NCBI GenBank assembly: GCA_000002445.1
Contig: CM000207.1
Span: forward strand, 1,344,001-1,408,000
DNA: 64,000 nucleotides
Source of the DNA: Trypanosoma brucei
Taxonomy: Eukaryota
Direction: 5' to 3'
Below are positions 7,321 to 43,054 of this stretch, piece after piece. Position numbers and translations under genes: made by a program. Numbering within the stretch: position 1 is the stretch's first letter; every line of letters starts with the position of its first letter. The notes under the pieces were generated by a model. That model saw only the letters and a program-made list of their open reading frames with translations, had not been told where the DNA came from and did not search any database.

Positions 7321-7564
7321 CGCAAATGAAAGCACACAACGGCGTGAGCGACCACGTAGGCAACCCAAACCAATGGACACTCAATAGTTCATGTCGTTCA
7401 ACTAGCCGCACAGTACGTTAACAAGAACAGGAAAAGTACATAAAAAGAATATATTGCCAAAAATAAAAAAAATTCAAAACAAACACTAATTGTTTTTTAA
7501 CTCTTTAGTCCAGCATACAATACCCTTGATGTTCTCGTAGAAAGGTGGTGACGAGACAAAAGGT

Positions 7565-8608
7565 TCAATCATCTTTATCAATAGAAAGGGCGGACCCGCT
7601 GCTTTCATTATCATCGCCATCATCACATCGTTCCCCACTAAGGAATTCATGGCGTCGCACTTCGTGCGAGTCCGGTGCGCGCGGCGACGTGGGAGCCCCT
7701 CCGAAATTTCCTGAAGAAACACCAGTGGATTTGCGTTGTAAGGGAACACTACAGGAACGAGCCACTGGTTTATCCTCGAGGGCAAGATGAGGTGAGTTTC
7801 CCTCGTAAGTCCTTCGGCTTTCATAAAAACCGACAGCCTTGAAGTTCCCCATACGGACGCGCGTCAGGGTGTGGGGCCGTGGAGCCACGACTGTTGCACG
7901 CAAGGCAACAAACTTCTGGCGTGCCCTCTCAAGTCGTTTGTCGCGTTTCTCCTCAATAATGCGAAGCCGCTCTTCTATCGTAAGTCGCTTATACCTGGAC
8001 GGCTCGGGGGTACTGGCTCTATCCTCATCTGCAAATGCTTCTTCTTCCACACATTGAACCACACCCGATCTAGGCGAACTGCAAACAGGTCCACTTCCAT
8101 TGCAACCATAATCACTAATTCTCTCTAACGAAGGACTACTGCTCGTTCCGTCACTGCCCGACACGCTTCCTGCATCAGTGTTCAACCTGGGTGTCGTTAC
8201 CATGTTTCGCTCGTCCCTACTATTCATGTCCCTCTCAGTGGGTTTTCTACCTGCAACACGCAACCGAATTCCGTTTCCAAGTTTTGTTTGAGTGCGCCGC
8301 CTGGCCTCAACAGGGGGCGGCTGGGTGACGTCTCCAGGCAGTGAAAAGGCTCCGCGCGCGCCACTATGTTTTGTATGGGGTGCATATACGCGGGAATTAC
8401 TGGAAAGACCTGAACTGTGCGACCTGGACACCGACGTTCTGACATCTGAGCAGCGAGGTGCCACGCCTTTAGAATTCGTCCTGGATTTGTTCACTGTGGA
8501 AACAAATGTCGCTTCCACCTCGCCTCGAGCCCTTTCTGCGTTGGAAGTCCATGCAGTCCTGCAGCGGTGTTGAGGTGGCAATTCGAAGTCCTTAAATGAC
8601 CCCTCCAT
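7565..8608 (-). CDS. Hypothetical Ser/Arg-rich protein (347 aa)
   Basis: Long minus-strand ORF in register with the polycistron. No recognisable domain. Low-complexity S/R/T-rich. Confidence 0.45.
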   Translation of the reverse strand: MEGSFKDFELPPQHRCRTAWTSNAERARGEVEATFVSTVNKSRTNSKGVAPRCSDVRTSVSRSHSSGLSSNSRVYAPHTKHSGARGAFSLPGDVTQPPPVEARRRTQTKLGNGIRLRVAGRKPTERDMNSRDERNMVTTPRLNTDAGSVSGSDGTSSSPSLERISDYGCNGSGPVCSSPRSGVVQCVEEEAFADEDRASTPEPSRYKRLTIEERLRIIEEKRDKRLERARQKFVALRATVVAPRPHTLTRVRMGNFKAVGFYESRRTYEGNSPHLALEDKPVARSCSVPLQRKSTGVSSGNFGGAPTSPRAPDSHEVRRHEFLSGERCDDGDDNESSGSALSIDKDD

Positions 8609-25804: not shown

Positions 25805-26193
25805 TGCCCCTCACGGTTGCGAAAGCACCCGCTCTTTGGGTGCAAATAGGAAATAAACAAAATTAAAGCAAAGCAAAGGCGATGAAGCAACGTCGCGGAG
25901 ATATGCAACACGAAAGCACATGAACACGTATGCACAAGCCTGAATGGGGTGCCACTGTCACCTTTCACTACAGGAAGAAAAATGATGCCCCGGGGGGGGG
26001 CATATGACCCTCAACCTCGTACTACGCTAGTTTCCAAGAGGGAGCAAGTATTTCCCAAACAAACGATACTTCACAAAGAAACAAAAAAAACCTACTGAAT
26101 ATGCGATTTGCCCTTCCCTTGGAATATACTGGTCGCTACGCCCATATCGTCTTCTGTCCCTGAACTACGGAGCCGCACTGCTGTCCATACATC

Positions 26194-26454
26194 TTAGTAC
26201 TTCCACCACAGGAACGGGGAATTGTCCTTCGACAATGTTCCCTTGCTATTCACGCACGGGTAGACGCGGTTCATTCCAGTCACCAGGGAGTACGAAGCGA
26301 AGACGCATCCAACAGCCGAAAATGCACAAAGGGCGTAAAAGCCCTTAAGCGTATTTGCCATCGTACGCTGGCCGCGGGCGAAAGTAGTTTGCTCATGACC
26401 CAATGGCTCCTTAATGAGTTGGTGGCCAAGACGGGAGTACGACCGACGAAGCAT
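26194..26454 (-). CDS. Possible small membrane protein (86 aa), speculative
   Basis: Minus-strand ORF in a 1.3 kb gap with one hydrophobic helix (FYALCAFSAVGCVFASYSLVTGM). No homology recognised. Confidence 0.2.
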   Translation of the reverse strand: MLRRSYSRLGHQLIKEPLGHEQTTFARGQRTMANTLKGFYALCAFSAVGCVFASYSLVTGMNRVYPCVNSKGTLSKDNSPFLWWKY

Positions 26455-27135
26455 TCTTCACTTTATCGTAGAAGGTGCAATAGTATGCCAATGTATATGC
26501 GCGTCTCCTACGTGCAATCACTATGGGGAAAAACCTAGCAGTTGTAATGTAAGTGCACAAATCTGCGAGTTTCGTGGACAAATAAAAAGAATGGGGGAAA
26601 CCAAGCGAGCTAAACATGTACACAACGACTTGGGATAGAAGGCGGTAACGCATTGCAAACATATATCATTTGTTTTCGTTTTACCTAATTCACACCTCTT
26701 TTCACGTACTTACACTTATTTATATGATTATGCCTCCTGAAAATTTACTGGGGGTTCGGTACAGGGCACGTTACACTTACTTTGCCTCGTACAACAAACA
26801 TGAGAAGAGGTGAAGTGATTCAATTGGTGTGGGTAAAAAACGGTATCGGTCAGCGCATAAGTGCGCGTGTACACATGTATATAATTCTCTTATTCTTATA
26901 TAAGGGTTCAAAAGAATCTGTGCGCCACAACCGTGGGTATTCCACAGTCGCCTAAAACAAACAAACAGAACCACAGCATTACACCACGCCATACAGCCTG
27001 GCTTGTGTTGGCATACTGTTGCACATGCGACGCCATCCTCTCCAGGCTCTCCGTTTTGGGCCAAGGCAAATAGAAAACGGGTCTCAAAATAAAAAAAAGT
27101 GGTTTTAACACATTATTTTTTCCTCTCCTCCTTCA

Positions 27136-30100
27136 CTAAACCGCTGAATCTATCAAACCTTCTCGTTCTTCTCCCGCAACAACAGCCAGTTGATCTATAA
27201 CCGTTGGCCAAAGAGTTATAGGGAGGCGTTTCTCTATCTTAAAGTAGCCTGATGGAGTCAACGCCTGATTCTTCAGTGCTTTGGCAAACCGCTCCTTCTC
27301 AGGAGTCCACAATGGATGGCGAGTTTCCACCGGCTTCGTCTCCAGTGGTTTAAGCTCCATTTGTTTCTGCGCCAAGATAAGAAACTCATCGTCGTCCCCA
27401 CCGAGTAAGTCAGCCCAGCTGGTCGGTTGTGCATTCTTCGCTGCCTCAGTTGCCGCACGCTCCTTGTTTGCAAGTGCCTCAGACCGGAGCTCGTTATAGC
27501 GCTGGAGGGCGTGCAGCTTGCTTTTTTTCGGGAGTGATTGATATTCTTCACGAATGAACTCTAGCAACGATCTCGTGTCCATCTCCTCCTTCGCCAGTGT
27601 TACATTGTCCCCTGAGTCAACGAGAATGGTCAGTAGCGTCGGGTAGAAAATATGACGGCCCGTCGTAAAATATTGAAAGGGCATGGTGGAAAGTATCTTT
27701 GACAGCAGTGACTTGCCCTTCCCCCAGGCAAAGATGTCCTGAATTTCTGGATCCTGTATGGAGAGGTAGCCTATCAAAAGTAAGCATTCGTGTAACGCGC
27801 CGCGCAGGTTATTTTGTTGGCGGTTTGTCACGGAAACCTTCCCGGACGTTGCACAACTAATGGCTTCCGTTCTGGCAAGCAGCGGCATTTGCTCTGCCGA
27901 CACACCAAACTTCAATGCCTCCTCAAATGAGCCTCCAACAGCACCACGGGCAGGATTTTCTTCCTTAATCGCTTCCAAGCTGTCTGTGTGAGATTGTACG
28001 TATGTAAAGAACCCGTTAAGCATATGGAACAACTCAGTTCTTGTGAACGTGTTCGACGACTCCGTGGGTATGGTATTAGAACCAGAATGAGCGCCCGTCC
28101 GCTTGTTGGTGGGGGAATCGTGAAGTAGTTCCTGCAGTGTTTCCAGATTCCACCTAGCGAGGCAGTTTAAGGCATTAAATGCAACACAAACTACGGTAAC
28201 CCGCCGAGCACTAAGCACTGGACTCAGCTCACTCAAGGAGCAGCCGTTGGGTGTTAATATATTCTGAAGAAGGGCAAAAAAAGAGGATGCTGCTTCTTGA
28301 ACCAAAGCAATTGGGCACCCACCCTTTCTACGATTCAATATGCTTATTTTCGAGCTCAGAATCCGCGTCGCGCTATGTGCGACATCTAAGTCCTCTTCAT
28401 CCGAGCACACTTTTACAACGGCGATGCAGTACTTTTCTATGTTGGTTGAGTCAAAACTGCTAAGCAACAGCTCTCTCACTGACGACAAACTGGTATCCGC
28501 TTGCACGGCTGACGTGACGCCTTCAAAACACAAGTGTAGTGCTTCGAGCATAGCGTCGAGCGGAACGGAACGTGACTGACGCTTCAAGCCCTTAATTTCC
28601 TCACTAATACACTGCAGGAGAGGGGCAAGATTACCCGAGCGAACAAAAGATACTATGTGCTTTCTCCCTTCATTTTTGTCTGCAAGAAAACGCAGAAGTG
28701 CCTCGTGTGCAAGCCGAAGAACAGACATGTTATTCGTCCGCCTCGATTCCAGTATTACGCCAATTATGTTTTCATACGCATTAAAATACCGCATGTATTC
28801 ATGGTCAGTATCCCCGAGGTCCGGCGCCTCTAGAATTTCCCGCAGCGATTGCCGGACCTGAGTCACAGGGGCTGGCGAAATGCCTGAGCCTAACCGGGAA
28901 ATAGTCAACTTCAACTTACTGCGGTTCAGGTCCTTTTGATCTATCAAGCTCTCCCTTTGATATTTATCGATAAAGCTCCTCCCCTGGCGCGTGATCATCG
29001 ACAATACTTTCAAAAACTTTTGCTCCATTTCCTCTCCCTCCTCCCGTGGAATGGTGGGCATCAACTCGGCAATTGTGAGCTTGGTGTCGGGTTCACGCTC
29101 CTTGCGCTGCCTCGCTTCCTTGATTTTTTGCTCCTGCTCCTCCAGTTTTTGCCGCAATTTCGTAATCTTTTCTTCACGGAGTTGGGCACTTTGTTGTATG
29201 CGTTCCTCAGCCTTTCTGCTCCGGGCCTCGGCTTCAGCGGAGGCTGCCCTTTGACGCTGTTGAACCTTTTTTTCCCATTCCTCAGCACGTTGTCCCTTCA
29301 TGTCCTTTTCTAGTTTCTTTTGCTCTTCAAGACGTCTTAGGTTCTCGCGTCTTTGCTGCTCTCTCTGTCGTTGCCGCTCCATACGTTCTTGGCCGAGGCT
29401 TCGTCTCCTCTCAGCAGCAGCGAGTATGGCTTCGTTTCGCTCCTGTGCCAATCGTTGGAGTTCCTCCCTTTTCTGCTCCTGGTTGTGTTCCACCTCTGAC
29501 ATTTTCCGATCAAGCAAAAGTACCTTCGCTTGGTGGCGCAACTCATTGTTGAGTCGCACCTCCTCAACACGAGAGATCCCTCGCCGCGCACGTTCCTTTG
29601 TCTGCTCCCTTGCCTCTTCAACGCGCCGGGCACCACTTTCGAGGCGTTCCATTGTGTCGATACGTAGCCGCTCCTCCGCCTGCCTGCGCCGCTCCTTTGC
29701 AAGTGCACCCCTCTCTTCAGCTGCCTCTAATTTCAGCTTCATCTCTTGAATTTTCTCTAACCGTTTTTCTTCCGCTATACGCTGCCGCTCCTCACTTCGA
29801 AGTGCTGACGCGTGTCTCGCCGCAAGAATCTCCTCGCGCTGCTGCTCCTCGTCGGCGATCGGCTTCGGTGAGATCTTCTTGTTCTTAACCAAACTTTGTT
29901 TCACAGCGCGTAGCCAGCCGCTAATTTCACGCTCTGGCTTCTCCTGTTCATCGGTGCCGGAACGCTCGGGTTTGGGACACTTCGCGTTTGATGTGTCGGC
30001 CTCAGCCTCCCGCTGCACCCTTTCGCATTTGGCAGCTTTGGCAACCTTCAATGCACGCAGCCCGTCCTCCACAACGTTGATAAAGTCATCCGCCGAAGAT

Positions 30101-30297
30101 GGTGCATTTTTGTCCTTTAGACAGATGGTTACCTCGGAAAAAATGGTTCGCAGTTTCTCCAAAAGAACAGATGGTGCAGTAACTGTATTGGTGAATACAA
30201 CGCGAGGCTGTGATTGGGTTGCAGCAACACTATTTATCATTCCCGACTTGGTATAGCCATTACCAGCACGTCCTCCGTTACTTCTTGCAGCTTTCAT
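27136..30297 (-). CDS. Large coiled-coil protein (1053 aa) with R/E-rich coiled-coil block and a structured C-terminal region (possibly SCAPER-like)
   Basis: A ~300 aa ER/K-rich coiled-coil (EERQRIAEEKRLEKIQEMKLKLEAAEERG...). The C-terminal ~600 aa are non-repetitive. The SCAPER resemblance is a weak recollection, not verified. Confidence 0.6.
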   Translation of the reverse strand: MKAARSNGGRAGNGYTKSGMINSVAATQSQPRVVFTNTVTAPSVLLEKLRTIFSEVTICLKDKNAPSSADDFINVVEDGLRALKVAKAAKCERVQREAEADTSNAKCPKPERSGTDEQEKPEREISGWLRAVKQSLVKNKKISPKPIADEEQQREEILAARHASALRSEERQRIAEEKRLEKIQEMKLKLEAAEERGALAKERRRQAEERLRIDTMERLESGARRVEEAREQTKERARRGISRVEEVRLNNELRHQAKVLLLDRKMSEVEHNQEQKREELQRLAQERNEAILAAAERRRSLGQERMERQRQREQQRRENLRRLEEQKKLEKDMKGQRAEEWEKKVQQRQRAASAEAEARSRKAEERIQQSAQLREEKITKLRQKLEEQEQKIKEARQRKEREPDTKLTIAELMPTIPREEGEEMEQKFLKVLSMITRQGRSFIDKYQRESLIDQKDLNRSKLKLTISRLGSGISPAPVTQVRQSLREILEAPDLGDTDHEYMRYFNAYENIIGVILESRRTNNMSVLRLAHEALLRFLADKNEGRKHIVSFVRSGNLAPLLQCISEEIKGLKRQSRSVPLDAMLEALHLCFEGVTSAVQADTSLSSVRELLLSSFDSTNIEKYCIAVVKVCSDEEDLDVAHSATRILSSKISILNRRKGGCPIALVQEAASSFFALLQNILTPNGCSLSELSPVLSARRVTVVCVAFNALNCLARWNLETLQELLHDSPTNKRTGAHSGSNTIPTESSNTFTRTELFHMLNGFFTYVQSHTDSLEAIKEENPARGAVGGSFEEALKFGVSAEQMPLLARTEAISCATSGKVSVTNRQQNNLRGALHECLLLIGYLSIQDPEIQDIFAWGKGKSLLSKILSTMPFQYFTTGRHIFYPTLLTILVDSGDNVTLAKEEMDTRSLLEFIREEYQSLPKKSKLHALQRYNELRSEALANKERAATEAAKNAQPTSWADLLGGDDDEFLILAQKQMELKPLETKPVETRHPLWTPEKERFAKALKNQALTPSGYFKIEKRLPITLWPTVIDQLAVVAGEEREGLIDSAV

Positions 30298-30553
30298 TGG
30301 TACCCTACCTCAAGAAAAAAAAAATATGGCAAATAACAGGAGTAGGATAAAACGAAGGTCAACATATGATGGCCAACGCAAAACAACAGCACATTTCAGG
30401 GATCAAAAAAGGAGGGAAATGAGGAAGTAACTGAAAAACTGGCACCCACGAACCTCTATATCAAACAAAAAAAAATTACACAAAGATAATCAGAATAACA
30501 AATAAGCAAAAAGTAGGTAACCAAAGTGTCCTATGGTATACTAAATTTTTTTT

Positions 30554-31684
30554 TCAAAAGCATTTGCTGTGTACGATGCTGGGTCCCGACTCGTCGTATT
30601 CACTCTTCGTTATCCACATCGACTGGAAGGTTGTTAGTGATGAGAGGATGGAACCGCCAATCCACACGCTATACTTGCGCTCCGGTGGTGCCACAACCTT
30701 AGGCTTGATCGATGACGGTGCAAGATTGCTGATCTCCTTTCCAAGTCGCTCAGGTAGGTTCTTGAACATCGTGGTACCGCCAGAGAGCACAATGTTGCCG
30801 TAGAGATCACGACGCACGTCAATGTCACACTTGTTGATGGACTGAAAGGTCATCTCATGGAACCCAGGAGCCTCATCAAGTCCAATGAGAGCAGGCTTAA
30901 ACAATGCCTCGGGACAGCGGAAACGCTGGTTCCCCACCTGCATAACATTGCCATCAGGAAGTTCGAACGGTTCTTCGCTGACAGATTTAGCACTGTTCGT
31001 CATCTCTTCGTCGAAGTCCAGTGCAACGTAGCATAATTGTTCCTTAATATTCCGCACGATTTCCTTCTCAGCGGAGGTGGTGAACGTCATACCAGTCTCC
31101 ATTAGGATCTTCATGAGATATTCCGTCAGGTCACGACCAGCCATGTCCACACGACGGATGGCATGAGGAAGAGAATAACCCTCATATATGGGCACAGTAT
31201 GTGTCACACCGTCACCAGCGTCGAGAACAATGCCAGTGGTACGGCCAGAAGAATACAGTGACAACACCGCCTGTATTCCGACGTACATGGCAGGTACACC
31301 AAATGTTTCAAACATAATCTGCGTCATTTTCTCACGGTTTTGCTTGGGGTTCATAGGCGCCTCAGTCAGTAGCACGTTGTGTGACTCAGGGTTGACGCGC
31401 AACTCGTTATAGAAGGTATGGTGCCAAACTTTTTCCATGTCATCCCAATTGGTCACAATTCCGTGCTCAATGGGGTACTTCAGCGCAAGCACACCACGTT
31501 TCGCCTGAGCTTCATCACCAACAAACAGTTTCTTGTTTGCACTTCCCATCATCGCTTGCTCATTTTTGGGGCGGCCGACGATGGATGGAAATACGTGGCG
31601 AGGAGCATCATCTCCGGAGAAACCCGACTTCACCATACCCGAGCCATTGTCACAAACTATAGCAGTTTGTTCCTCGTCCGACAT
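30554..31684 (-). CDS. ACT: Actin (376 aa), tandem copy 1 (stop codon TGA)
   Basis: Unmistakable actin sequence [40 protein letters not shown]...[10 protein letters not shown]. The ORF-track start is extended by 28 spurious codons. The true ATG is at 31682-31684. Confidence 0.95.
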
Positions 31685-31790
31685 TATTTTATGGCAGTAA
31701 CGAGACCTTACGTAAAGCAAAACTAAATAAGAGCGGAGACTGCAATGCAGAGTAAAAAAAAAAAACATGAATTTCAGAAGACCTTGCTGT
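30557..31790. repeat. Tandem direct repeat unit 1 (actin ORF plus ~105 bp of 5' flank)
   Basis: Aligns with 32071..33302 at an offset of 1514 bp. Only one synonymous difference was seen in the ORF (31425 t vs 32939 c). The A-run differs (A12 vs A10) upstream of the ATG. Identity ends at cagaagac. Confidence 0.9.
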
Positions 31791-32067
31791 GCAATGCTGC
31801 ATAGATAACAAACGCATCAAACACAACTGGTGGCACTATTTCAATCATGTCGACACACCAAGGCGAGAAAATTTGAGTTAAACAAGATGCCTACAACCCT
31901 ATATTTATTATCTTCAAGTGATCTTCTCTCCTCTTGTGCGCTGTACGTAAATGTGTTGCATATAAGGCATAGGGCTGAGTACAGGCACCACGCGCGAGGA
32001 AAATCATAAGCACTAGCCGTGTCAACTCACAGCAACTACAGAACAAATTTGGCCACACAACCCGGTG

Positions 32068-33198
32068 TTAAAAGCATTTGCTGTGTACGATGCTGGGTCC
32101 CGACTCGTCGTATTCACTCTTCGTTATCCACATCGACTGGAAGGTTGTTAGTGATGAGAGGATGGAACCGCCAATCCACACGCTATACTTGCGCTCCGGT
32201 GGTGCCACAACCTTAGGCTTGATCGATGACGGTGCAAGATTGCTGATCTCCTTTCCAAGTCGCTCAGGTAGGTTCTTGAACATCGTGGTACCGCCAGAGA
32301 GCACAATGTTGCCGTAGAGATCACGACGCACGTCAATGTCACACTTGTTGATGGACTGAAAGGTCATCTCATGGAACCCAGGAGCCTCATCAAGTCCAAT
32401 GAGAGCAGGCTTAAACAATGCCTCGGGACAGCGGAAACGCTGGTTCCCCACCTGCATAACATTGCCATCAGGAAGTTCGAACGGTTCTTCGCTGACAGAT
32501 TTAGCACTGTTCGTCATCTCTTCGTCGAAGTCCAGTGCAACGTAGCATAATTGTTCCTTAATATTCCGCACGATTTCCTTCTCAGCGGAGGTGGTGAACG
32601 TCATACCAGTCTCCATTAGGATCTTCATGAGATATTCCGTCAGGTCACGACCAGCCATGTCCACACGACGGATGGCATGAGGAAGAGAATAACCCTCATA
32701 TATGGGCACAGTATGTGTCACACCGTCACCAGCGTCGAGAACAATGCCAGTGGTACGGCCAGAAGAATACAGTGACAACACCGCCTGTATTCCGACGTAC
32801 ATGGCAGGTACACCAAATGTTTCAAACATAATCTGCGTCATTTTCTCACGGTTTTGCTTGGGGTTCATAGGCGCCTCAGTCAGTAGCACGTTGTGTGACT
32901 CAGGGTTGACGCGCAACTCGTTATAGAAGGTATGGTGCCAAACCTTTTCCATGTCATCCCAATTGGTCACAATTCCGTGCTCAATGGGGTACTTCAGCGC
33001 AAGCACACCACGTTTCGCCTGAGCTTCATCACCAACAAACAGTTTCTTGTTTGCACTTCCCATCATCGCTTGCTCATTTTTGGGGCGGCCGACGATGGAT
33101 GGAAATACGTGGCGAGGAGCATCATCTCCGGAGAAACCCGACTTCACCATACCCGAGCCATTGTCACAAACTATAGCAGTTTGTTCCTCGTCCGACAT
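32068..33198 (-). CDS. ACT: Actin (376 aa), tandem copy 2 (stop codon TAA)
   Basis: Protein identical to copy 1. ATG at 33196-33198, verified by reverse-complementing ttcctcgtccgacat to ATG TCG GAC GAG GAA. Confidence 0.95.
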
Positions 33199-33302
33199 TA
33201 TTTTATGGCAGTAACGAGACCTTACGTAAAGCAAAACTAAATAAGAGCGGAGACTGCAATGCAGAGTAAAAAAAAAACATGAATTTCAGAAGACTTTGTT
33301 TT
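32071..33302. repeat. Tandem direct repeat unit 2 (actin ORF plus ~105 bp of 5' flank)
   Basis: See unit 1. The flanks diverge immediately 3' of the stop codons and ~105 bp 5' of the ATGs. Confidence 0.9.
33240..33300 (-). promoter_or_regulatory. Polypyrimidine tract / SL acceptor region upstream of actin copy 2 (identical element upstream of copy 1 at ~31726-31790)
   Basis: Plus-strand agagtaaaaaaaaaacatg equals a T-run on the transcribed strand, within the conserved repeat flank. Confidence 0.4.
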
Positions 33303-36300
33303 ATAAATGTAACAATTTTTTGTACTGTTATGTCAAAATCTTTTTTCAATTACGGATATTTACGCAGTTATTAACTTGCAGAATGGCGGTAGTTCATAGG
33401 ATGTCATTTGATGGTAACAGCGTTTATTCTTCGCATTCGTACACCTTGATTATTTTGTAGACATCCCTCTTGGCTCATATGTTCGATATCTTATCTTTTG
33501 TTGAACCCAGTGTCGTAGAAACCAGTCGTTTTTTCGTCATCTTAATGTTGGTTAACGTTCCGTGGTAACTTCGTTGTCCCTGGGGGAAAGCGGCCGACAA
33601 TGTATATGTTCTCGTGGCTAGCGTCAACTTTGTGGTCGTTTTTTGTTATTACATCCCCGACGACAAGTGAAAAAGATGGGTGGCGTACGCGGCCGTTTGT
33701 CCTAGTTTAACAGAATGTACCGCCTATTTCACACTTATGGGTATTGACTGAACGCCGCATGCAAGATGTTTTAAACACCTCCAGGTTGAAGCAGTGTTAA
33801 CCAACCACGCCTAATGTTTTGAATGTCACGACCTTTGAGCATTTGGATACTGCAACCAAATAATCAAGCCGCATCATTATGATGTGACTGAGGAAAAAAG
33901 AAACAAAAATGTCCCGCTAAGGTTCCACATGCTTCACCAAAAGCGACCTTAAGCCAACAAGTGGAAGATGACAACAGCATCCTCAGGTTGCGAGAACACA
34001 TTGTTTCGAACACCATGTGTGTTTTCATAGTGTGTAAGTACAGCCCCTTGTCTGATTACCACGAAAACACAAGTGAGTTAGAAGCCTTACCATCTGGTGA
34101 AAGGTCAAACTAACTCATATACGTTCCTCCTTGTCGTAAAACAAAAACAACCAAATCGATTACTAAACAAATAGCAGAACAATCTACAAACAGAGGGAGA
34201 CACTCGGCGGACAATAGTAAATGAATAGTAGTTAGTTGAGAAAAGCATGTGTCCACCTTCCAACACGAAACAGTAGCACACAAGTTGTTGTTACATGAAA
34301 AAAGTGAAGCGAAAATATACGATGCCTCTTTTCCTGCATACAAAACCTGGGTTCCGGATAACCTGGCAGTACAAAAAAAAAAAAGTCGAACTACATCGTG
34401 CGTCAAGCTATCGCTGCAACAAACCCTCCCATATGATATTCAAAACCCATAAGATATATATTTCACCTACATACCGTGGGGAGAAAAAAACCAAATTAAA
34501 CGGGGTCAGGAAGATGCAGGTGGAATACCCGAGTAAATGCGAAGCACCCGGGCACGGTCGTCCCATATTCGAGACACAGTTTTAAAAACAAAAAAGCTGA
34601 TTAGATAGATCACTTTAACAAGGGGAGAATAGCCCATAACCCATTCACACCAGTCGTTCACGTGTAAAAAAAAAAAGGAATAGGTGTGAGAGTTTCTCTC
34701 TTACAAAAAATAAAAATTAAAAAGCAGGGACCCCGATGAGTGCTCTCTGTCCAGTAAGAGTGCCCCAACAAAAAGGTTACATCACAGAAACACAAAGTCC
34801 AGGGAGAAACAGGGTTAACGAGTGCATAGTGTAATACTTTTAAAACATAAAATTCGAGACAAATTGTGATTAATGCATGTTTCAAAAAATAATTTTATTT
34901 CCACCAGCATAAAGAGGAAAGTTCCCCATTCACCTCATGTTACAGCAGCGATAACGCTAGGAAACGCACTGGTCAGTTGATTTCCGTTCCGCTGAGTTTG
35001 ATAAGCTCAGGTGTGAATTAAAAACGTACTCACGACAATGCCGATGGTAAATCGGGTGAATAAAACATCTATGTATGCTCGAAAAACACATGACATTATA
35101 AATACGTCTCCATAGTGCCTACGGAGTCAAATCGAAGGAGGCTGTTGACGGAAATACACTACAAATCGTCAGTTTGAATCATTGCAGCACACCAATGAGA
35201 TCTGAAAGATGCAAAAAAAAAGTATATGTGTTTCTATGGTACTATCCAAAATAATAACTGCAGAACGACGTCTCAACAAAAGAAATCATAATTATAATAA
35301 TGTTAATTTAATAATGACAACATTAACTTCAGTATACTATATTTCATCATGAAGATTTTAAGGGTAGAAATCGGGTACAACACGCATCCGGAAATGTTGG
35401 AATCAACCCTTTATTCCCTCACCTGCATCGTTGTACAAGTTAATACTGAATGCGACATGAAAGTACGTCACCACAGACAACGTCACCTCAAAACGGTACA
35501 GACACTCCCAGCCGGTTGGGTTAAACAACGCCATGCTGAAACTTTTACCCAGAGCAAGTCTACATGCAACATGCTGTTAGGGCACAAAAGTGCATACAAC
35601 GACGTTACAATGATTTAGGTCGATTTTTAAAAATATGTTGCAAATGGTAAAGATGGAACGAGCAGAAACCTTGTCCAATCATCCGAACACTGTTATACAC
35701 CAGAAGTTTTAACAAATAAAAAAAATAACGATCACCCACTTTGCGACAATTATCCCTTAAACCCATATACTTACGGGACAATAGAAGACACATTTCTCTG
35801 AAGTAATCCGAAGTGACTCATCCGCATCATTAGGTCCCCATAAAAACTACAATGGTGGAACCTTCAGAAGTGAACGGGATCATCCACATATGCAAAGCGG
35901 ACGAGTTTAGTCATTCAATTAATCATCGGCATGTACTGTGGACGTCCGACGACCTATTTCCTGTGTTCCGGTGAACATTCAAGTGCAACACGATGCCCAC
36001 TAGAAGATCCCTCAAAATCTTCTTTGCATGGAAAACCCAGAAAAATACTTAACCATCAGAACGAGCGGTGAATAGCGACATCACACTAATTACTCATCTA
36101 CCACTGGGCAAGGGCGGGTAGAATATTTTTTAAAAAAAATGAATGTGATGGAGCCTGTGCATTACCTTGATGCAGTAAATGGCACGCCCAAGCACTTGCA
36201 CCGAAACGTTCACCACCGAAGAAGGGTATTATACGCGTAACAAATGTGGGCGTCTTTTCGGTGTATCCACCAAAACCTTCTAGCAGTGTACTGTATTCCC

Positions 36301-37140
36301 AAAGGGGGAGCAAAGAGAAATGAAGACCGAACTCATCATAGGGAAGCGGATCAATATTGATACATCAAAGTTGGGCTGTTGGTTAAAAAAAAAATGGAAG
36401 TTCACCGACACAAAAGAAATCTACAAAGAGCCACACCACCATCAAAAAAAAAAAGAAGGAAAGTGGTGACATGGGTTTATTTAAGTTTTCTTTACATCAC
36501 CACTCGACAACAACGCGAACTCAAAAAAATGGTGCGAAAGAGGCAGCCAAAAAGTTCACCAACGATCGCTCTTGCAGACGGCATCAAGTGGAGCAGATGC
36601 TTCCTTTCCTTCCCGAGTTTTACGCCACCATAGTGTGGCATACGAGGGACCCGGGACACCGATGGGTTTGAATGGCATATTTCCAACCATCCCACTCACA
36701 CTCATGAATCGGAACAGAGTCAACTGGTCGCAGCGAGGGCAGTGGTCATTGCGAAGTGTAAGCTTCCTACAATAGCTGTTCGATACCGCAAATTCGTACA
36801 TGTAACCACAACGAAAGCACGAAAACAACGCCATCCTGCCGATATCCTAACAGAGAAGTTGAAAGGCGAAGGGGAATTTTTTGCTTTCAACACAAACGCA
36901 AGTGAGAAAGTCCAGACGGGGAGAAAGGGGACATACTTCTAAGAAAATGCGTGCTTCAGCATCGCCTAGGTCATGCAGGCGCACGCACACATATACGTAG
37001 GCACCGGCAGCGCAAGGGTTTCAGCATAGCCTCCAAGCGACAGAACCAACCAAATACCAACCAACAAACGGTACAAAAGTCACCCATCACCCACCAAAGG
37101 AGCCACACCAACGGTGGCAACTTCTTTCCTCCCTCTCCAG

Positions 37141-37167
37141 CCCCCCCCCCCTTTAAAAAAAGGGGGG
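37141..37167. repeat. Quasi-palindromic homopolymer block C11-TTT-A7-G6
   Basis: ccccccccccctttaaaaaaagggggg seen directly inside the GC-rich island. Confidence 0.9.
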
Positions 37168-40100
37168 CGCTCATCCTCGCACGATTGATAAAAGGAGGTA
37201 CGTCACACGCCCCCCGAGTGCCCCCGGCCCGACAAATACCCTTCAAAGATAAGACAAAAGACCAGCGGCGAAGTGGGGGGCCACACACACACACCGCAGC
37301 CGAAGCAACCCACCAGATTTTGTGGTGGCCCTCCCGTTCAAAGCGACCTGCACCAGCGCCTTATCATGCTCGACACCCAAACCCGCCGACAGGCGCCGAA
37401 GGACCGACACCGTAACTATGATCCGCATTCCACACCTGAGCCGAACCCCAGTAAAAACAAACAAAACACACGAAAATACGGCCCGCCCACGAGCGGAGGT
37501 GGGTGTGGACGGCCCCGCGGCAACAGATACAACCAGCATCCCAAAAACGCTCACAACAGGCACCGGCTCCGCCCACCACTCACGACGAGCCGGTCCGCAC
37601 ATGAGGTTAGTGGAAGAAAAAAAAACAACGGTCCAGCACAACGCCACTAGCACCAACACCAGGCAGGGCCAAACCTTTGACGAAGCAGTGCTCCACGGGC
37701 ATGGGACCCACGCGAGCCTCCGGTTTCTCGCAAAAGTAAGAGGTCATAAACATTGGCCCCACAGCGGGGCCCCAGCCGCGGTGCCAAAGCAGCGACAGGC
37801 CAATCCCCACACACGCGGAGTCCCCACCGCCACTGGCGTACGAACCTTTAATTGTTGCGAATGCGGCGGCCAGCCGCCCCCATGCACCCCGGGCCCCGAG
37901 CATCAGAGCAGCCGGATGGCCGCCCAGCATCGGAGAGAAGGCCGGTGGCAACACCACCCACTGTCCCTGGGGATGGGGGAGGGACAATGAACGAAATACC
38001 CATTCAACACTTTCCTCAACGCGTGGAGAACGGTGACGGGACCAAATGCAAAAAAAAAAAAGAAGAGCGCACACTAACCACATGATGCGGGCGCACGGCG
38101 TCGGCGGAACCGCCTGCACGGGGTGGGGGCATAGCGGCAGGGAATGGCGTAGGCGTCGCGAAAGATCTAAGGGCAATAAGATGTGTTGAAGTCAAACCTG
38201 CCGAACGCCTGTTCAATCGCGAAGACCAGACAACATTCGTGTCAACATATTTCCACAAATCAACTATCCTTAACCAATAACGGCTGAGGACGTTGAATTC
38301 GACGGAGGGCCGCTCATTGTGGTGTGGACATGAGTTCCCGCAGCCGACCGTGGAACCGAGCCACCGCTTCTGGAAAAGCAGTCGAATGCGCGGTTCGATG
38401 GCGCCCGAGAGGGGAAAAGAAGATCACCGGAGTGCAGCTCTTCCCTCGCATTACTTAGACACTGTATGAAGTAGGAGGGGCTGTGGTGGAGGCGGAAGAA
38501 AGGTAGCAGCAGCGGATTCACCGGCAACACACACAGGGCAAACGTCAGCGGAGGCCGCGACGGGCCCATTCTGGTCACAACCTCCAGCGCATCATTCACA
38601 CGTAGCAAGACTGACCCGAACAGCTTGGCAATAAAGCGGCGTGCAAGAATCGCAGAAAAGATACGGGTGGTTCCTAAGGCGGAGCGGGTGGGAGAAGCTA
38701 AACCATTTTATAATCCACACTAAGAATCAAGGCACAAAAAAAGCATCTCCCGTGGGGGAAGAGCGTGTTGACGACATTTTCCCGGCCAAAGGGCCCAACC
38801 TTATCGACCCAACAGCAGAAAAACTTTCTAGCACCTCGAAGAAGCAACAACGGTGGGCAAGGTGAACTCAGCGGTGAAAGAAACGACCCCAAGGCAACAC
38901 GAATACAAAACAGAAAAACTGGAAGAGGCCGAGGCAGGAATGTGAGACCTGGCTGCCGCGGCACTTGCACCACGGACGTTGAGCACATTAGTTGTAGGCG
39001 TCAAAGAGCAGAAGCCAACAAAACGGCGGTAAGCAGATGCTGTTGCGGAAATGTACTAAAAGAGGCTCAGAAAGATACGGCGAGCTCCGAGGGTGGAATT
39101 ATCAGGGGTAACAAACTATAAGTCTAAGTTGTTTGATTACGGAGGAGCGGAGGTTGACACAGAGTGACGTATACGCTGGAACTGCACCTAGAGAAGATTG
39201 CACACACGGAAAGAAATTGTAGAACCTTGTTTGGAAAGAGAGGAAATGCTTCGTGAGGTTTTATAATCACCGCGTGGAACACGGCGGAATACCCGGGCGG
39301 GGGTGAGAAGGGCGGTAAAACATCACTCTCGGGAGACAGAAAAAGCTTGCAAAAGAGGCGGCGGCAGCCCGAGAAGCGGCCCTTAGAAGTGTTTTCTCCA
39401 AGTCGATGAGGGGTTGATTGGCAGTACACTGAAAGGTCACTTTGATCGGTTGCTTACATCAAAGAAACCGCCGTTTATGCCAAAGCACCAAGCAGTAGAC
39501 ACCAAGTTTTTGACGTTTGGTGAAACAAGGTGGAGAAATGGGGAGACAGCAACTGCTTTCATGGATCGTGCAAGAGCGACCGGCTCAATGGATCGTCGGG
39601 GGATCACTCACTGTGGTTTTAAATCGCTGCGATGCGCATCTCCGCTTAGCGAGACGGATAGGACAGTTGCCGCATAACCGAAAATCCAAAATGAAGATGA
39701 GCAACGCGTAGCCAGGAGATTTCCTCGACCTTAGGGGTGTGGCGGGAATTTGTCCTCGAACCACTTCTGGTCGCTGTGATAATGGAAGCATAATAAGAGG
39801 CACTGATCGGAGCACAGGGATTAAGCATACCTTCCTTGCAAACGGTCCAATCGTCATACGCGCCGGCAGAGGTCTAAAAAAATTTTGAGCAAACGCCACG
39901 GAGGGAGCCTCGGTTGTGTGCCAATGAACGGTCGAAAAGACCTTTCGTGGAAATTTCGGCTGAAGAGGAATGCACAACGTCTCGGTGCTGCCGCGCAGCT
40001 GAATGGACTTTTGAGTGCCTGAGATGCTGGTAAACAAGCCGAATGCACCTAATATATCGAGCCTTACTTCACAACTGGTTAAGATCGCCGTGAAGCGTGT

Positions 40101-43054
40101 TCAAAAAATTTTAAGCCACCAAATCGAAACCTCCCAAGCCGTTTACAGATTCCTCAGTGTGGTAGGGTCGTGGGTACGACATTCCGTGGCTGTTTTCATC
40201 TCGCGTTGGCCCCATCGCACGGCAGGGACGGGAAAGAACTACGGTGTTTGGATGTCTTTGAGCGTGGTTGGGGAAACCCCACTGCTGCAGAGCGCTACTC
40301 GAGTTACATCATAGCAAGCGCGTTGCGAAAGGCGCGGAGAGGGGAGGCCCTCTTTTTAAGTTCCCCCGCTTATTGCCGCAACTGTGACGCGCAACGTTGC
40401 ATTTTGTGCTAATGTGGAGGCTGTGGGACAGGAAAATGCGACGTTGCGAAGCCGCACCCTGTCGTATGCGAAGCCACCTGGTTTTCCGAGTTGACAGCCG
40501 CTCGCCACGAACGGAGGGCCCTCTTTATTGTAAAACCCAAACAAGGAAGCAGAGTTCAAGACGTGAAAATGGGGGAACACCGGACGGTCGCGTCGGGAGG
40601 CCGCTGTGAGCGACAAATACGCTCTCCAGCGGAAACATCGACCTCGTCATCAACCGACAGTGCGGCGCCTTTGGTTTGCTTTGTTTCACAAGGCGTGCAT
40701 GCGCACATCGCAGCCGCCACGCAGCCTTTTTCTTCGCACAGGTTTTGTTGGTGCGGAATGAGCGCCCAAAAAGGTTGGTGCACGTAGTAATGGCCAAACT
40801 TAACCGAGGTCTACGCAGTTCGAAGGCGCCGCACATATATGCATATGCGTTGCGCCATGTTTCCCTAAAGTTGTCCAGTGGGTGAGCGTTTTTCTTTTTT
40901 TTTTCTTCACGTATGATGGCCGCGCCTGACTACCGCTGGCTTTGGATTTGGGGAACCGGCGCGCACTAACGAAATGCTGATCGCCGTTGCGTTCGGTGTT
41001 CTCGTTGACTTGTGGGATGTTTACGAACGCGAACTCTGTGGAAAGTTGAAATAATTAAGACGAAAATGCCTTATGGCAGCGCTGCGGATGATCAGGGAGC
41101 TACAGAAATGGAGGAAGAGGAGAATGTGATCGGGAATTCTTTCTTTCCCTTTAGTGACGTACACGGATGGTGGTTGGGAAATTGTTGGGATACGCTTTAG
41201 GAACGCCTCTGGCGGTGTCCGAAGATTTTTTTTTTCGTGCTGGACGAGGCGGGGGATAACTACACCAATAACTTTTTTTTTTTAAAGGAAACAGTTCGGA
41301 AACGGAAGTATCTCTATAACTCAATATCAGGGTACGACAAAAATCTGAACGCGCGGGGTAAATATAAGGGGGTGCGGTCTTCCTCTCAACTCATCACTTC
41401 CCCCTGTTTGTTTTACTGCTGCCTTCACTCCATGACAACGTCGGTATCATAGGGCAAAAATGCAAACATGTACTCTCCCGTATGGATGGGCGATCATGGA
41501 GCACATCACCGCACGCGATTGATTATTTTCCACCACCAAAACGAAAAAAAAGGGGGAAAAAAGACATGCGTAGCGCACAGTGTGTGTGAACACAGCGTTG
41601 AGTTCCAAAAGTTCCGCTTCACCACCTCATTGCGTTTTCTTTTCTCCCCCTTTCCTCAAACCCTCCAGATGCACGAAGATATCGGAATGAAAAGTAAGAG
41701 AGGGTAGAGACGTCCGATATGTGGCCCTGCAAACGCTAAATGCGACACGGCCCACAAAATGTGATAATATTCAGTTTTGTCACAATATACTGAGATCTCT
41801 CATACATTGGTCCTTTACCGCTCGAACCAATGGTGTGTGCCTTCATTTCCACTTTAGGCTTCACTGCCGTTATTCCGGTGATGATCAGAAGTTTGTATGA
41901 CTCCAGCACTGCGGATAATTCGCATTAGATATTTTACAGTAATTAGTGAGGCATTGATGACCATGTTGCCTTTAAGAACTGTACAGCATATTAGCAACAA
42001 TGACCTTATTCGAAAGATGGAGGGTATACCGCCCGTTCCTCTTCCCCTTCTCCATCCTTGTTGTGGGCAGAAAATAGCCTTGTGACCTGCTTCCAACAAG
42101 ACCTTTCATCTCCTACTGACTGATAAGGTGTTAACCGTAATGCACCGCTGCCAATATCAAAAATAAAATTAAAAAAAACCGCCATAGCCCTGTTCAATCC
42201 ACCTTTGCGCTATGGAAGGAAATTTGTCATCATCGTGCACGTTAAAACTTTTCCTCCCGATCCATAGCACCTGCATTTGCGAAGCCAGTACCATTGGGAA
42301 TTTAAAATAGTTTCATCACCCCTCCCCGCCTCGGTAAAACACCCAAACGGACCACGCATTGGCGCGTGAGGCGGACTCCAACAAGTCACAGACGTACACG
42401 CACATACATACATGAGAGTAAATGAGGCGCAAACCTACTTCTGTCTATCTTCACTTCCTTGGTTTTTAGCTTCAATAACCATGCGTGCTCCAGTCAATCG
42501 ATGCAGCAGTGACATTTTCTTGAATCAGCCTCGTATCACTGAATTGTGCAGCAAATGTACGCGCGAAACGCTGGGGATACCTCCGCATAAAGACATAATC
42601 GTCTCGTCCATGGGATCGCTGCGTGAGACTTTTTCGTGCGTGGGCAAGAGCTCTGCGGCAGAGCAAAGGCACGGAGGTGCAAATGCGATGTTTAACTGCT
42701 TTCATATTTATCAATGTCCTTCACATCTAAGCCATATCACCAAACTTTATCCTAACTGCTAAATGTATACGTGTGAACTCAAATAAACGATGATGTGGGA
42801 ACAAAACGGCAAATCTCCATTGGACCGTATTACATCAGGAGAAAGTTACCAAGTGAGTGTCGTAGAGCATTTCGAAACACTATTAGTGCTATTATTACAA
42901 AAACCTCACGTATTGTGTTGATGACGTGGTCATAATGACCAGTATTCTTGTTCCCCTTTCCCCCCTCCCCAATCCACCACACCGCTTTCTTTCTTTTCTT
43001 TACGTAGGGGTGAATCGCAACAGCCAAGTCCCGGTGAAACACCGATCGAGCTAT

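Follow-up and report, generated by a model that had tools for sequence, protein, structure and literature searches.

The window, a stretch of 64,000 nucleotides (64 kb) covering positions 1,344,001-1,408,000 of chromosome 9 of Trypanosoma brucei brucei TREU927, holds a tandem pair of actin genes. Both open reading frames (ORFs) are 1131 nt long, lie head-to-tail 1514 nt apart on the minus strand and encode identical proteins; no further actin copy was found within the 64 kb. The upstream gene is actin B (copy U; Tb09.211.0630 = Tb927.9.8880) and the downstream gene is actin A (copy D; Tb09.211.0620 = Tb927.9.8850), the name "Actin A" having been given to Tb09.211.0620 in the literature. By direction of transcription the downstream gene is the one at 30554..31684, which the original prediction had numbered copy 1. 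The features of the locus, in window coordinates and in the order in which the minus strand is read, are:

33299..43054, minus strand: ORF-poor region of ~9.8 kb upstream of actin B (context, outside the repeat)
33199..33298, minus strand: 5' homology block of actin B (BLAST and global alignments)
33268-33277, minus strand: T10 poly-pyrimidine tract of actin B; homology between the copies runs ~21 nt past the tract
33254-33255, minus strand: first AG after the tract, putative trans-splice acceptor of actin B
33199-33253, minus strand: putative 5'UTR of actin B, 55 nt (from motif positions)
32068..33198, minus strand: actin B coding sequence, 376 codons plus stop TAA at 32068-32070
31842..32067, minus strand: actin B 3'UTR, 226 nt, 32% U and 45% GC, wholly within spacer S
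31787..32067, minus strand: inter-copy spacer S, with no relation to flank Z or to the region upstream of actin B
31685..31786, minus strand: 5' homology block of actin A (BLAST and global alignments)
31766-31768, minus strand: in-frame ATG immediately 5' of the actin A T12 tract; homology extends to ~21 nt beyond the tract
31754-31765, minus strand: T12 tract of actin A (from motif positions)
31740-31741, minus strand: AG of actin A, putative trans-splice acceptor
31685-31739, minus strand: putative 5'UTR of actin A, 55 nt (from motif positions)
31430 T / 32944 C (plus-strand letters; genes on minus strand): sole sense-codon difference, Lys85, AAA in actin A and AAG in actin B
30554..31684, minus strand: actin A coding sequence, 376 codons plus stop TGA at 30554-30556
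30421..30553, minus strand: actin A 3'UTR, 133 nt, 47% U and 31% GC
30467-30475, 30405-30419 and 30312-30324, minus strand: poly-pyrimidine tracts in flank Z (from motif positions)
30298..30553, minus strand: terminal flank Z, from the actin A stop to the ATG of the next gene
27136..30297, minus strand: next gene downstream, conserved kinetoplastid protein of 1053 aa (synteny anchor)

The protein shared by the two genes matched Pfam PF00022 (Actin) at 463.5 bits (cut-off 27; E=6.4e-139) over residues 4-376 and profile positions 2-410, indicating a full-length conventional actin, and was 100% identical to the database entry "actin 1 - Trypanosoma brucei". A T. brucei actin gene cluster was reportedly described by Ben Amar et al. 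in 1988 (Mol Cell Biol 8:2166), and the locus is said to have been known since then; the array described here is the same locus, and its structure shows no differences from that cluster. Gene identities were assigned via the predominant poly(A) sites that RNA-seq placed at 1375842 for actin B and 1374421 for actin A (Kolev et al. 2010, Table S13): adding the 226-nt UTR to the former gives 1376068 (window 32068) and adding 133 nt to the latter gives 1374554 (window 30554), so that both stop codons are reached with one offset of 1,344,000. Each copy has a poly(A) site of its own, one in each unique 3' flank. The array is therefore the already known T. brucei actin locus, with both genes annotated and their poly(A) sites published.

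All large ORFs near the array are on the minus strand, and the array falls in one putative Pol II transcription unit, labelled "Internal", whose first ORF is actin B (Kolev et al. 2010, Table S14). The pair is thus a genuine array, with head-to-tail copies on one strand in a single polycistronic unit. The 1053-aa neighbour is 100% identical to a TREU927 hypothetical protein and has orthologues across Trypanosoma and Leishmania; a Pfam scan of it found no domain. Within the ORF-poor upstream region there is a GC-rich patch at about 36.5-40.5 kb. Scans for tRNAs and tandem repeats found none, and an Rfam scan of 29500-35000 at E<=1 returned only two chance matches to microRNA models, both inside ORFs (22 bits against a gathering threshold of 104).

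Only two differences separate the ORFs, one at ORF position 255 and the other in the second letter of the stop codon. The single synonymous difference originally predicted between the two 1131-bp ORFs thus holds, with identical proteins and no other sense-codon change, except that its position had been given as 31425/32939, off by 5 from the true 31430/32944. At this site the AAA codon for Lys85 is private to actin A of this genome, G being found in 6/6 other T. brucei-group copies. Upstream of the ATG, the ~105 bp of predicted identity proved to be 102 nt for actin A and 100 nt for actin B, with one mismatch besides the run-length difference, which is A12/A10 on the plus strand, i.e., T12 (actin A) and T10 (actin B) on the gene strand. 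Within this shared 5' flank lie the poly-pyrimidine tract, the AG that comes next and the putative 55-nt 5'UTR, and the whole homologous block amounts to 1229-1231 nt at 99.8% identity, far above chance.

At the 3' end, identity had been predicted to stop at the last sense codon; it ends inside the stop codon, which is TGA in actin A and TAA in actin B. The downstream sequences are unrelated, as predicted, and the alignment found no homology continuing 3' of the stop codons: the best local alignment of the two 3' flanks (32067..31791 versus 30553..30298) scored 17, below the mean of 19.0 +/- 2.5 for shuffled sequence, and 255 of the 300 shuffles scored as high or higher. Moreover, spacer S showed no similarity above shuffles to the flank after actin A, to the region upstream of actin B or to the reverse strands, and only poly-T matches to the rest of the 64-kb window. 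Since the spacer lacks residual homology in the window, a tandem duplication of a "gene plus spacer" unit has left no trace.

The window was then compared with three other T. brucei-group assemblies (L001, L002 and L003, the last with one copy). Spacer S and flank Z are orthologous across these genomes, at 98-100% identity (S, 98-99%), the three complete loci each have precisely two copies together with this same S and Z, and in the four assemblies upstream copies always end in TAA and downstream copies in TGA. On the other hand, the paralogues vary together: i) at ORF sites 42, 60, 90, 297 and 639, the L003 copy and the two copies of the window have one state, and L001 and L002 each carry the alternative state in both of theirs; ii) ORF site 762 is altered in both copies of L001 alone; iii) ORF site 531 is altered in both copies of L002 alone; iv) at 5'UTR position -13, the window copies both have A, and L001 and L002 have G in each of their copies. 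Thus eight sites, seven of them synonymous positions in the ORF and one in the 5'UTR, co-vary between paralogues. Reads in a 1.2-kb identical repeat are not always assignable to one copy of a shotgun assembly, and some shared-state calls in L001 may be consensus effects; three further assemblies agree, however, and the states differ consistently from genome to genome.

The copy-specific flanks and stops are orthologous in four assemblies, and the duplication is therefore older than their divergence. Within a T. brucei-group genome, however, the paralogues differ by 1-3 nt, as compared with 6-9 nt between the window and L001 or L002, so that paralogues are more alike than orthologues despite a duplication before the split, which is concerted evolution. 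Judged from these sequence comparisons, homogenisation of the ORF and the 5' processing region is real, and demonstrated instead of inferred. In the literature searched, no earlier account of cross-strain and cross-species evidence for concerted evolution of actin was found.

In other trypanosomes the locus was searched for by synteny using the 1053-aa neighbour, as the actin query returned mostly animal and plant actins. (All Trypanosoma actins fall in one 90% protein cluster.) The syntenic locus carries two tandem copies in T. vivax, two in T. cruzi (L008) and four in T. melophagium, with paralogues 0-2 nt apart within species and 160-260 nt between species. In each of the three, the last copy is followed by a 3' flank that bears no relation to the internal spacer, and in the four-copy array of T. 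melophagium the internal spacers are homologous to each other. The boundary noted in T. brucei recurs at these orthologous loci: in three species out of four, the shared sequence stops within the stop codon (T. brucei, T. cruzi with TAG/TAA, and T. melophagium with three TGA and one TAG), the exception being T. vivax, where 38 nt are shared past an identical TAA and a strict stop-codon rule is not fitted. Alignment of spacers and terminal flanks between species showed that non-coding DNA can be aligned only where the species are very close, the only matches being between terminal flanks (T. rangeli versus T. conorhini, z=9; T. cruzi versus T. conorhini, z=4.4). For T. grayi, T. rangeli and T. 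conorhini, the contigs break off within actin or adjoining it. Single-copy T. cruzi loci were considered as real contractions and rejected as such: in L006 a 243-N scaffold gap occupies the place of the second copy, and the single-copy assemblies are at least partly collapse artefacts.

We therefore read the locus, with a probability of roughly 85%, as a two-gene tandem actin array in which a block of ~1230 nt is kept identical by recombination and the 3'UTRs are unrelated. The pair would open a polycistronic Pol II unit, with actin B transcribed ahead of actin A. Each mRNA would be excised by trans-splicing, probably at the first AG after the T10 or T12 tract. Polyadenylation occurs ~100 nt upstream of the poly-pyrimidine tract of the next gene: the published site of actin B precedes the AG of actin A by 101 nt, and that of actin A precedes by ~100 nt the final poly-pyrimidine tract ahead of the next gene. 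Two mRNAs would result, alike in 5'UTR and coding sequence but with 3'UTRs that have nothing in common, 226 nt long in B and 133 nt in A. Of the consequences, the chief one shown is that a single actin protein is encoded in double dose.

Continuing homologous recombination (gene conversion, unequal crossing-over or both) would homogenise the block from ~100 nt of 5' flank through the first base of the stop codon, and because exchange is confined to shared sequence, the spacer after actin B and the flank after actin A would evolve independently. The 3' edge would then mark the first freely variable position after the ORF, i.e., stop codon bases 2-3. The 5' flank may have been retained in the block through splice-signal constraint, or the stop codon may be the site of an old breakpoint; both are proposed by argument. 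As the 3' flanks keep no residual similarity, such a breakpoint is as possible as divergence. The original prediction had described the 3'UTRs as free to diverge: the flanks are indeed unrelated, but they need not have diverged from one ancestral sequence, and flank Z is unusually conserved between strains. Similarly, of the gene conversion limited to the ORF that had been proposed, homogenisation of the ORF and the 5' signals stands, but the choice of conversion does not, since unequal crossing-over gives the same pattern; on sequence grounds the two processes are not separable, 11 variable sites being too few for a GENECONV-type search for conversion tracts.

Homogenisation mainly by unequal crossing-over, with the array contracting to one copy, expanding to three or four and returning, is possible but somewhat unlikely. 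Copy number appears to range from 1 to 4 across alleles and species, in assemblies and in a review which, citing Ben Amar 1988 and Cevallos 2003, gives two actin copies for one allele but a single copy for the other; moreover, the mutually homologous internal spacers of the four-copy array are what repeated exchange predicts. However, every complete T. brucei-group locus has two copies and shares S and Z, and the one-copy T. cruzi assemblies at least partly reflect the collapse seen at the L006 gap. The near-identity across 1.23 kb would also fit a simple recent segmental duplication without conversion, but a fresh tandem duplication would have left homology in the 3' flanks, the spacer and the upstream region, where there is none. 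An old duplication whose paralogues nevertheless co-vary at 8 sites excludes it: the orthologous copy-specific flanks and stops, common to four assemblies, together with the co-varying sites refute this reading, and we give it practically no weight. An assembly artefact, either one gene written twice or a consensus copied between collapsed repeats, is hardly credible. Short-read trypanosome assemblies do break or collapse at this array, but independent assemblies have two copies with the same unique flanks, RNA-seq poly(A) sites fall in both unique 3' flanks, and the copies differ by a private substitution and by their stops.

The original prediction had added that the arrangement allows copy-specific post-transcriptional regulation. 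The distinct 3'UTRs might have been selected for differential regulation (by stage, stress or translation) of the two actin mRNAs, like those of HSP70-I/II, for which there is the precedent of Leishmania; homogenisation limited to the ORF would then be the outward sign of a functional design with two mRNA isoforms. The 3'UTRs are experimentally distinct (226 versus 133 nt) and contrast strongly in composition (U, 32% versus 47%), the split between internal and terminal 3' flanks recurs in four Trypanosoma species, and flank Z, with 1 substitution in 256 nt relative to T. b. gambiense, is more conserved between strains than upstream intergenic DNA (1/256 versus 16/487 substitutions; p=0.009). 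However, this conservation is explicable by signal load, as the splice signals of the next gene lie within the 256 nt; ACT mRNA is reported not to be developmentally regulated and serves as a constitutive control; and a literature search found no copy-specific abundance or half-life data, transcriptome studies having pooled the actin copies or omitted the second. Moreover, once homology is lost, the flank of the terminal copy must differ from the internal spacer, so that the pattern needs no selection. We thus regard selection for differential regulation as unlikely. More doubtful still is the proposal that the internal/terminal split of actin 3'UTRs, its boundary within the stop codon included, is ancestral to African and American trypanosomes and was kept by selection for differential mRNA control (stage, stress, localisation or translation); if it were true, the actin coding sequence would have been homogenised throughout the history of the genus, and actin would be a second, much older case of the HSP70-I/II principle of Leishmania.

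In the Leishmania HSP70 locus a single HSP70-II gene comes after five or six copies of HSP70-I. The locus resembles the actin array in having a common 5'UTR and coding region and a last copy with a different 3'UTR, an arrangement conserved across the genus. The actin array is likewise structurally a two-class 3'UTR array, with shared 5'UTR and coding sequence and an unrelated terminal 3'UTR. The two HSP70 3'UTRs, however, give different mRNA accumulation and translation on heat shock, whereas those of actin are not known to differ in this way and actin mRNA is regarded as constitutive.

Concerted evolution of gene arrays is textbook knowledge for T. brucei, and homogenisation of ORF and 5' region with unrelated 3'UTRs is accordingly real yet ordinary for trypanosome arrays. 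The arrays surveyed by Jackson (2007; BMC Evol Biol 7:54) and in the T. b. gambiense genome (Jackson et al. 2010) are, like that of actin, head-to-tail and polycistronic; their coding sequences are identical bar occasional silent changes, their paralogues converge within a genome, and their first and last copies have non-coding flanks that are curtailed or "sometimes entirely different". They differ in that the terminal UTR is mostly a shortened internal spacer, whereas the terminal flank of actin shares nothing from the stop codon onward. The surveys also took arrays of more than three copies, and actin is a pair; the word "actin" is absent from the text of Jackson (2007). Because of this choice, two-copy arrays have seldom been analysed, and the actin array provides a very clean teaching example, in which the limits of homogenisation are readable to the base and the stop-codon limit recurs in three or four lineages. 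In practice, when an RNA-seq pipeline discards "redundant" copies, the 3'UTR reads go with them, and these alone could tell actin A from actin B. Finally, the "actin 3'UTR" of widely used vectors is one of two unrelated sequences, and which of them is meant therefore matters.

Both actin genes are encoded on the minus strand, each with unique sequence after its stop codon:

33198..32068, minus: ORF of the upstream copy (U), 1131 nt, stop TAA, 376-aa protein
32067..31791: spacer S after U, 277 nt
31684..30554, minus: ORF of the downstream copy (D), 1131 nt, stop TGA, 376-aa protein
30553..30298: terminal flank Z after D, 256 nt
27136..30297, minus: next gene downstream, 1053 aa, 100% identical to a T. 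b. brucei TREU927 protein

Translation of the ORFs yielded identical 376-aa proteins, which represent a conventional actin (Pfam PF00022, E=6.4e-139) and are 100% identical to the database entry actin 1 of Trypanosoma brucei. The predominant poly(A) sites of Tb09.211.0620 (actin A) and Tb09.211.0630 (actin B) were reported at chromosome 9 1374421 and 1375842, with 3'UTRs of 133 and 226 nt respectively (Kolev et al. 2010, PMC2936537, Table S13). Site plus UTR length gives 1374554 and 1376068, i.e. window positions 30554 and 32068 under one common offset of 1,344,000. Since both published 3'UTRs land on the window's stop codons with a single offset, the window is Tb927_09_v4:1,344,001-1,408,000; D is actin A (the published name for Tb09.211.0620), Tb927.9.8850, and U is actin B, Tb927.9.8880.

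The ORFs differ at just two bases: i) ORF position 255, where Lys85 is AAG in U and AAA in D (plus-strand C at 32944 and T at 31430); and ii) the middle base of the stop codon (TAA in U, TGA in D). Thus the original prediction of a single synonymous site between the 1131-nt ORFs and of different stop codons held, with the site itself placed 5 nt off (31425/32939). Upstream of the ATG, U and D match for 100/102 nt, as far as 33298 (U) and 31786 (D), close to the ~105 nt anticipated; apart from the expected run-length difference (T10/T12, gene strand), there is one mismatch. At the 3' side identity ends inside the stop codon: pairwise alignment revealed no further ORF difference and no homology 3' of the stops. 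S and Z were no more similar than shuffled sequence (local alignment score 17 vs 19.0 +/- 2.5), as had been claimed for the 3' flanks, and S likewise showed no relation to the sequence upstream of U or to the rest of the 64-kb window; by these alignments S was copied neither from Z nor from the region upstream of U. Strain-to-strain conservation is higher in Z than in the intergenic stretch preceding actin B (33299..33900): comparing the window with T. b. gambiense, we counted 1 substitution in 256 nt for Z vs 16 in 487 nt, plus a 15-nt indel, for the latter (1/256 vs 16/487; Fisher p=0.009). Besides the actin A 3'UTR, Z includes every processing signal for the next gene.

Three further loci encode the identical actin protein: T. 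b. gambiense DAL972 chromosome 9 (L001), GCA_003543875.1 (L002) and GCA_001457755.2 (L003, where the contig begins within the last 32 nt of U). S and Z were found in all three, copy-specific and 98-100% identical to the window, and the stops are likewise as in the window (U TAA, D TGA); thus the two-copy structure with unrelated flanks is older than these lineages. At ORF sites 42, 60, 90, 297 and 639, one base is common to the two window copies and the L003 copy, and another to the copy pairs of L001 and L002; the two L001 copies alone share a change at site 762, and the two L002 copies alone one at site 531. Moreover, at 5'UTR position -13 the two window copies carry A, and the copy pairs of L001 and L002 carry G. 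Among the window and L001-L003, no ORF site pairs U with U and D with D. As read from these alignments, the pattern reflects concerted evolution: the copies were homogenised on at least three separate occasions within T. brucei. One copy of the window genome alone has A at 31430, a new mutation which has so far neither spread nor been erased. Shotgun-assembly reads within a 1.2-kb repeat are hard to place in a copy; despite this, the independent assemblies concur, and the differences in state from genome to genome are consistent.

Such homogenisation would proceed by homologous recombination between the copies, whether gene conversion, unequal sister or homologue exchange, or both. As exchange requires homology on both sides, it would be restricted to the shared block and leave S and Z untouched. 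The part of the original prediction that limited homogenisation to the ORF and 5' signals stands, since paralogues co-vary and flanks are orthologous; gene conversion and unequal exchange fit the pattern equally well. Copy number at the actin locus varies from 1 to 4 across species and alleles (some figures come from draft assemblies, and the allelic one is cited in a review), so unequal exchange probably happens here on some timescale.

Syntenic loci in other trypanosomatids were fetched with the 1053-aa neighbour as anchor:

T. vivax (L004): 2 actin copies; ORFs identical; homology to 38 nt past an identical TAA
T. cruzi (L008): 2 copies; one site and the stop differ (TAG vs TAA); homology ends at the stop codon
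T. melophagium (L010): 4 copies; the last with an A6-to-A5 deletion and another stop (TGA in three, then TAG); homology ends at the stop codon
L. donovani (L014): 1 actin copy; within-array comparison not applicable

ORF differences numbered 160-260 nt between species vs 0-2 within species, and non-coding flanks could not be aligned between T. brucei, T. vivax, T. cruzi and T. melophagium. In no array compared is the terminal 3' flank related to the internal spacer; in the four-copy T. melophagium array the internal spacers are mutually homologous. The 5' limit of homology lies at ~100 nt in T. brucei and T. vivax, ~200 nt in T. cruzi and ~60-90 nt in T. melophagium, with the poly-pyrimidine region always within the shared 5' flank in these four species. 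In three of the four, bases 2-3 of the stop codon mark the end of homology, so that the boundary predicted from T. brucei recurs in T. cruzi and T. melophagium, not in T. vivax. This limit may be an ancestral arrangement, or may have been reached repeatedly, the stop codon being the first post-ORF position changeable at no cost.

The actin pair is a known locus of a known kind. The locus was described in 1988, as cited in a later review, and copy-specific actin poly(A) sites have been in print since 2010. Jackson (2007) reported concerted evolution of T. brucei arrays, with last copies bearing 'sometimes entirely different' 3' regions, findings later extended to T. b. gambiense; these surveys treated arrays of >3 copies, with actin unmentioned, whereas the present array has two. 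Added here are a base-level demonstration for the actin pair and the recurring stop-codon limit in other trypanosomes.

Trypanosome trans-splicing uses the first AG after a poly-pyrimidine tract. The shared 5' block includes such a tract (T10/T12), with the first AG 14 nt after it and 55 nt between AG and ATG:

33254-33255, minus: first AG after the poly-T tract, U
31740-31741, minus: first AG after the poly-T tract, D

By the first-AG rule these are likely the trans-splice acceptors. Polyadenylation is coupled to downstream trans-splicing in trypanosomes. From the actin B poly(A) site (31842) to the actin A AG downstream is 101 nt, and from the actin A site (30421) to the final poly-pyrimidine tract preceding the next gene ~100 nt, a spacing that fits such coupling. 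Both 3'UTRs lie wholly within unique sequence, and the published sites separate the copies' 3' ends as the prediction implied (226 nt for B vs 133 nt for A); U content is 32% vs 47% and GC 45% vs 31% in actin B vs actin A.

The effect shown is one of dosage: two genes, two mRNAs, one protein. Copy-specific post-transcriptional control, as originally proposed, is possible by analogy with the Leishmania HSP70-I/II array, where copies have the 5'UTR and ORF in common, the last has a different 3'UTR, and translation differs. HSP70-I/II is a true precedent for such control, which for actin is a candidate function. ACT mRNA has been reported as not developmentally regulated and used as a constitutive control; transcriptome studies merge both actin genes or omit one.

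The poly-T tract (31754..31765 in D, 33268..33277 in U) varies in length between copies and strains, being 10, 12 and 13 in the upstream copy (window, L001, L002) and 12, 16, 14 and 11 in the downstream copy (window, L001, L002, L003); within the homogenised block, it alone is not kept identical. D also shows an apparent 404-aa ORF (30554..31768, minus), with an in-frame ATG (31766-31768) directly 5' of the T12 tract and translation through the tract (MFFFF...). A 404-aa product with this extension is annotated for the T. b. gambiense upstream copy (L001 8399..9613; run T12). As this ATG lies upstream of the poly-pyrimidine tract and likely splice acceptor, it is expected to be absent from mature mRNA; the extension is probably an annotation artefact that appears or vanishes with run length.

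The terminal T. melophagium copy (L010 6519..7648) has its frame broken by the 1-nt deletion (A6 run, ORF position 153) and otherwise equals copies 1-3 save for the stop (TAG vs TGA); this points either to a homopolymer error in the long reads or to a pseudogene of very recent origin. Draft assemblies are prone to breaks or collapse at the array: T. cruzi L006 has a 243-N gap (7359..7601) in place of the second actin, contigs of T. grayi, T. rangeli and T. conorhini (L011, L012, L013) end inside actin or just upstream, and T. vivax contig L005 stops in the flank after actin. Assemblies of this kind are no reliable guide to copy number. From Trypanosoma to Leishmania the 1053-aa neighbour is conserved and keeps its syntenic place directly after actin; the protein has no Pfam domain, its middle part is long, Glu/Arg/Lys-rich and coiled-coil-like, and some Leishmaniinae orthologues carry the source name 'S phase cyclin A-associated protein'.

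Upstream of actin B, an 'actin gene promoter' was reportedly placed a few kb away by Ben Amar et al. in 1991. In Kolev et al. 2010 (PMC2936537, Table S14) a putative Pol II transcription unit classed as 'Internal' opens with the actin B ORF, and the novel transcript Tb9.NT.56 has a poly(A) site at window 36403 (Table S13 of the same study). No tRNA genes were detected in the 64,000-nt window, and no tandem repeats in 26000-44000. An ORF-poor gap of ~9.8 kb (33299..43054) interrupts the otherwise dense minus-strand gene cluster; it contains a GC-rich patch (GC up to 0.60 at ~37-38 kb), a C11 run at 37141 and a shift in GC skew near 38 kb. A lone 222-aa ORF in the GC-rich patch (37322..37990) is on the plus strand, while all other ORFs of >=200 aa in the window are on the minus strand, which would fit one or two long directional gene clusters.
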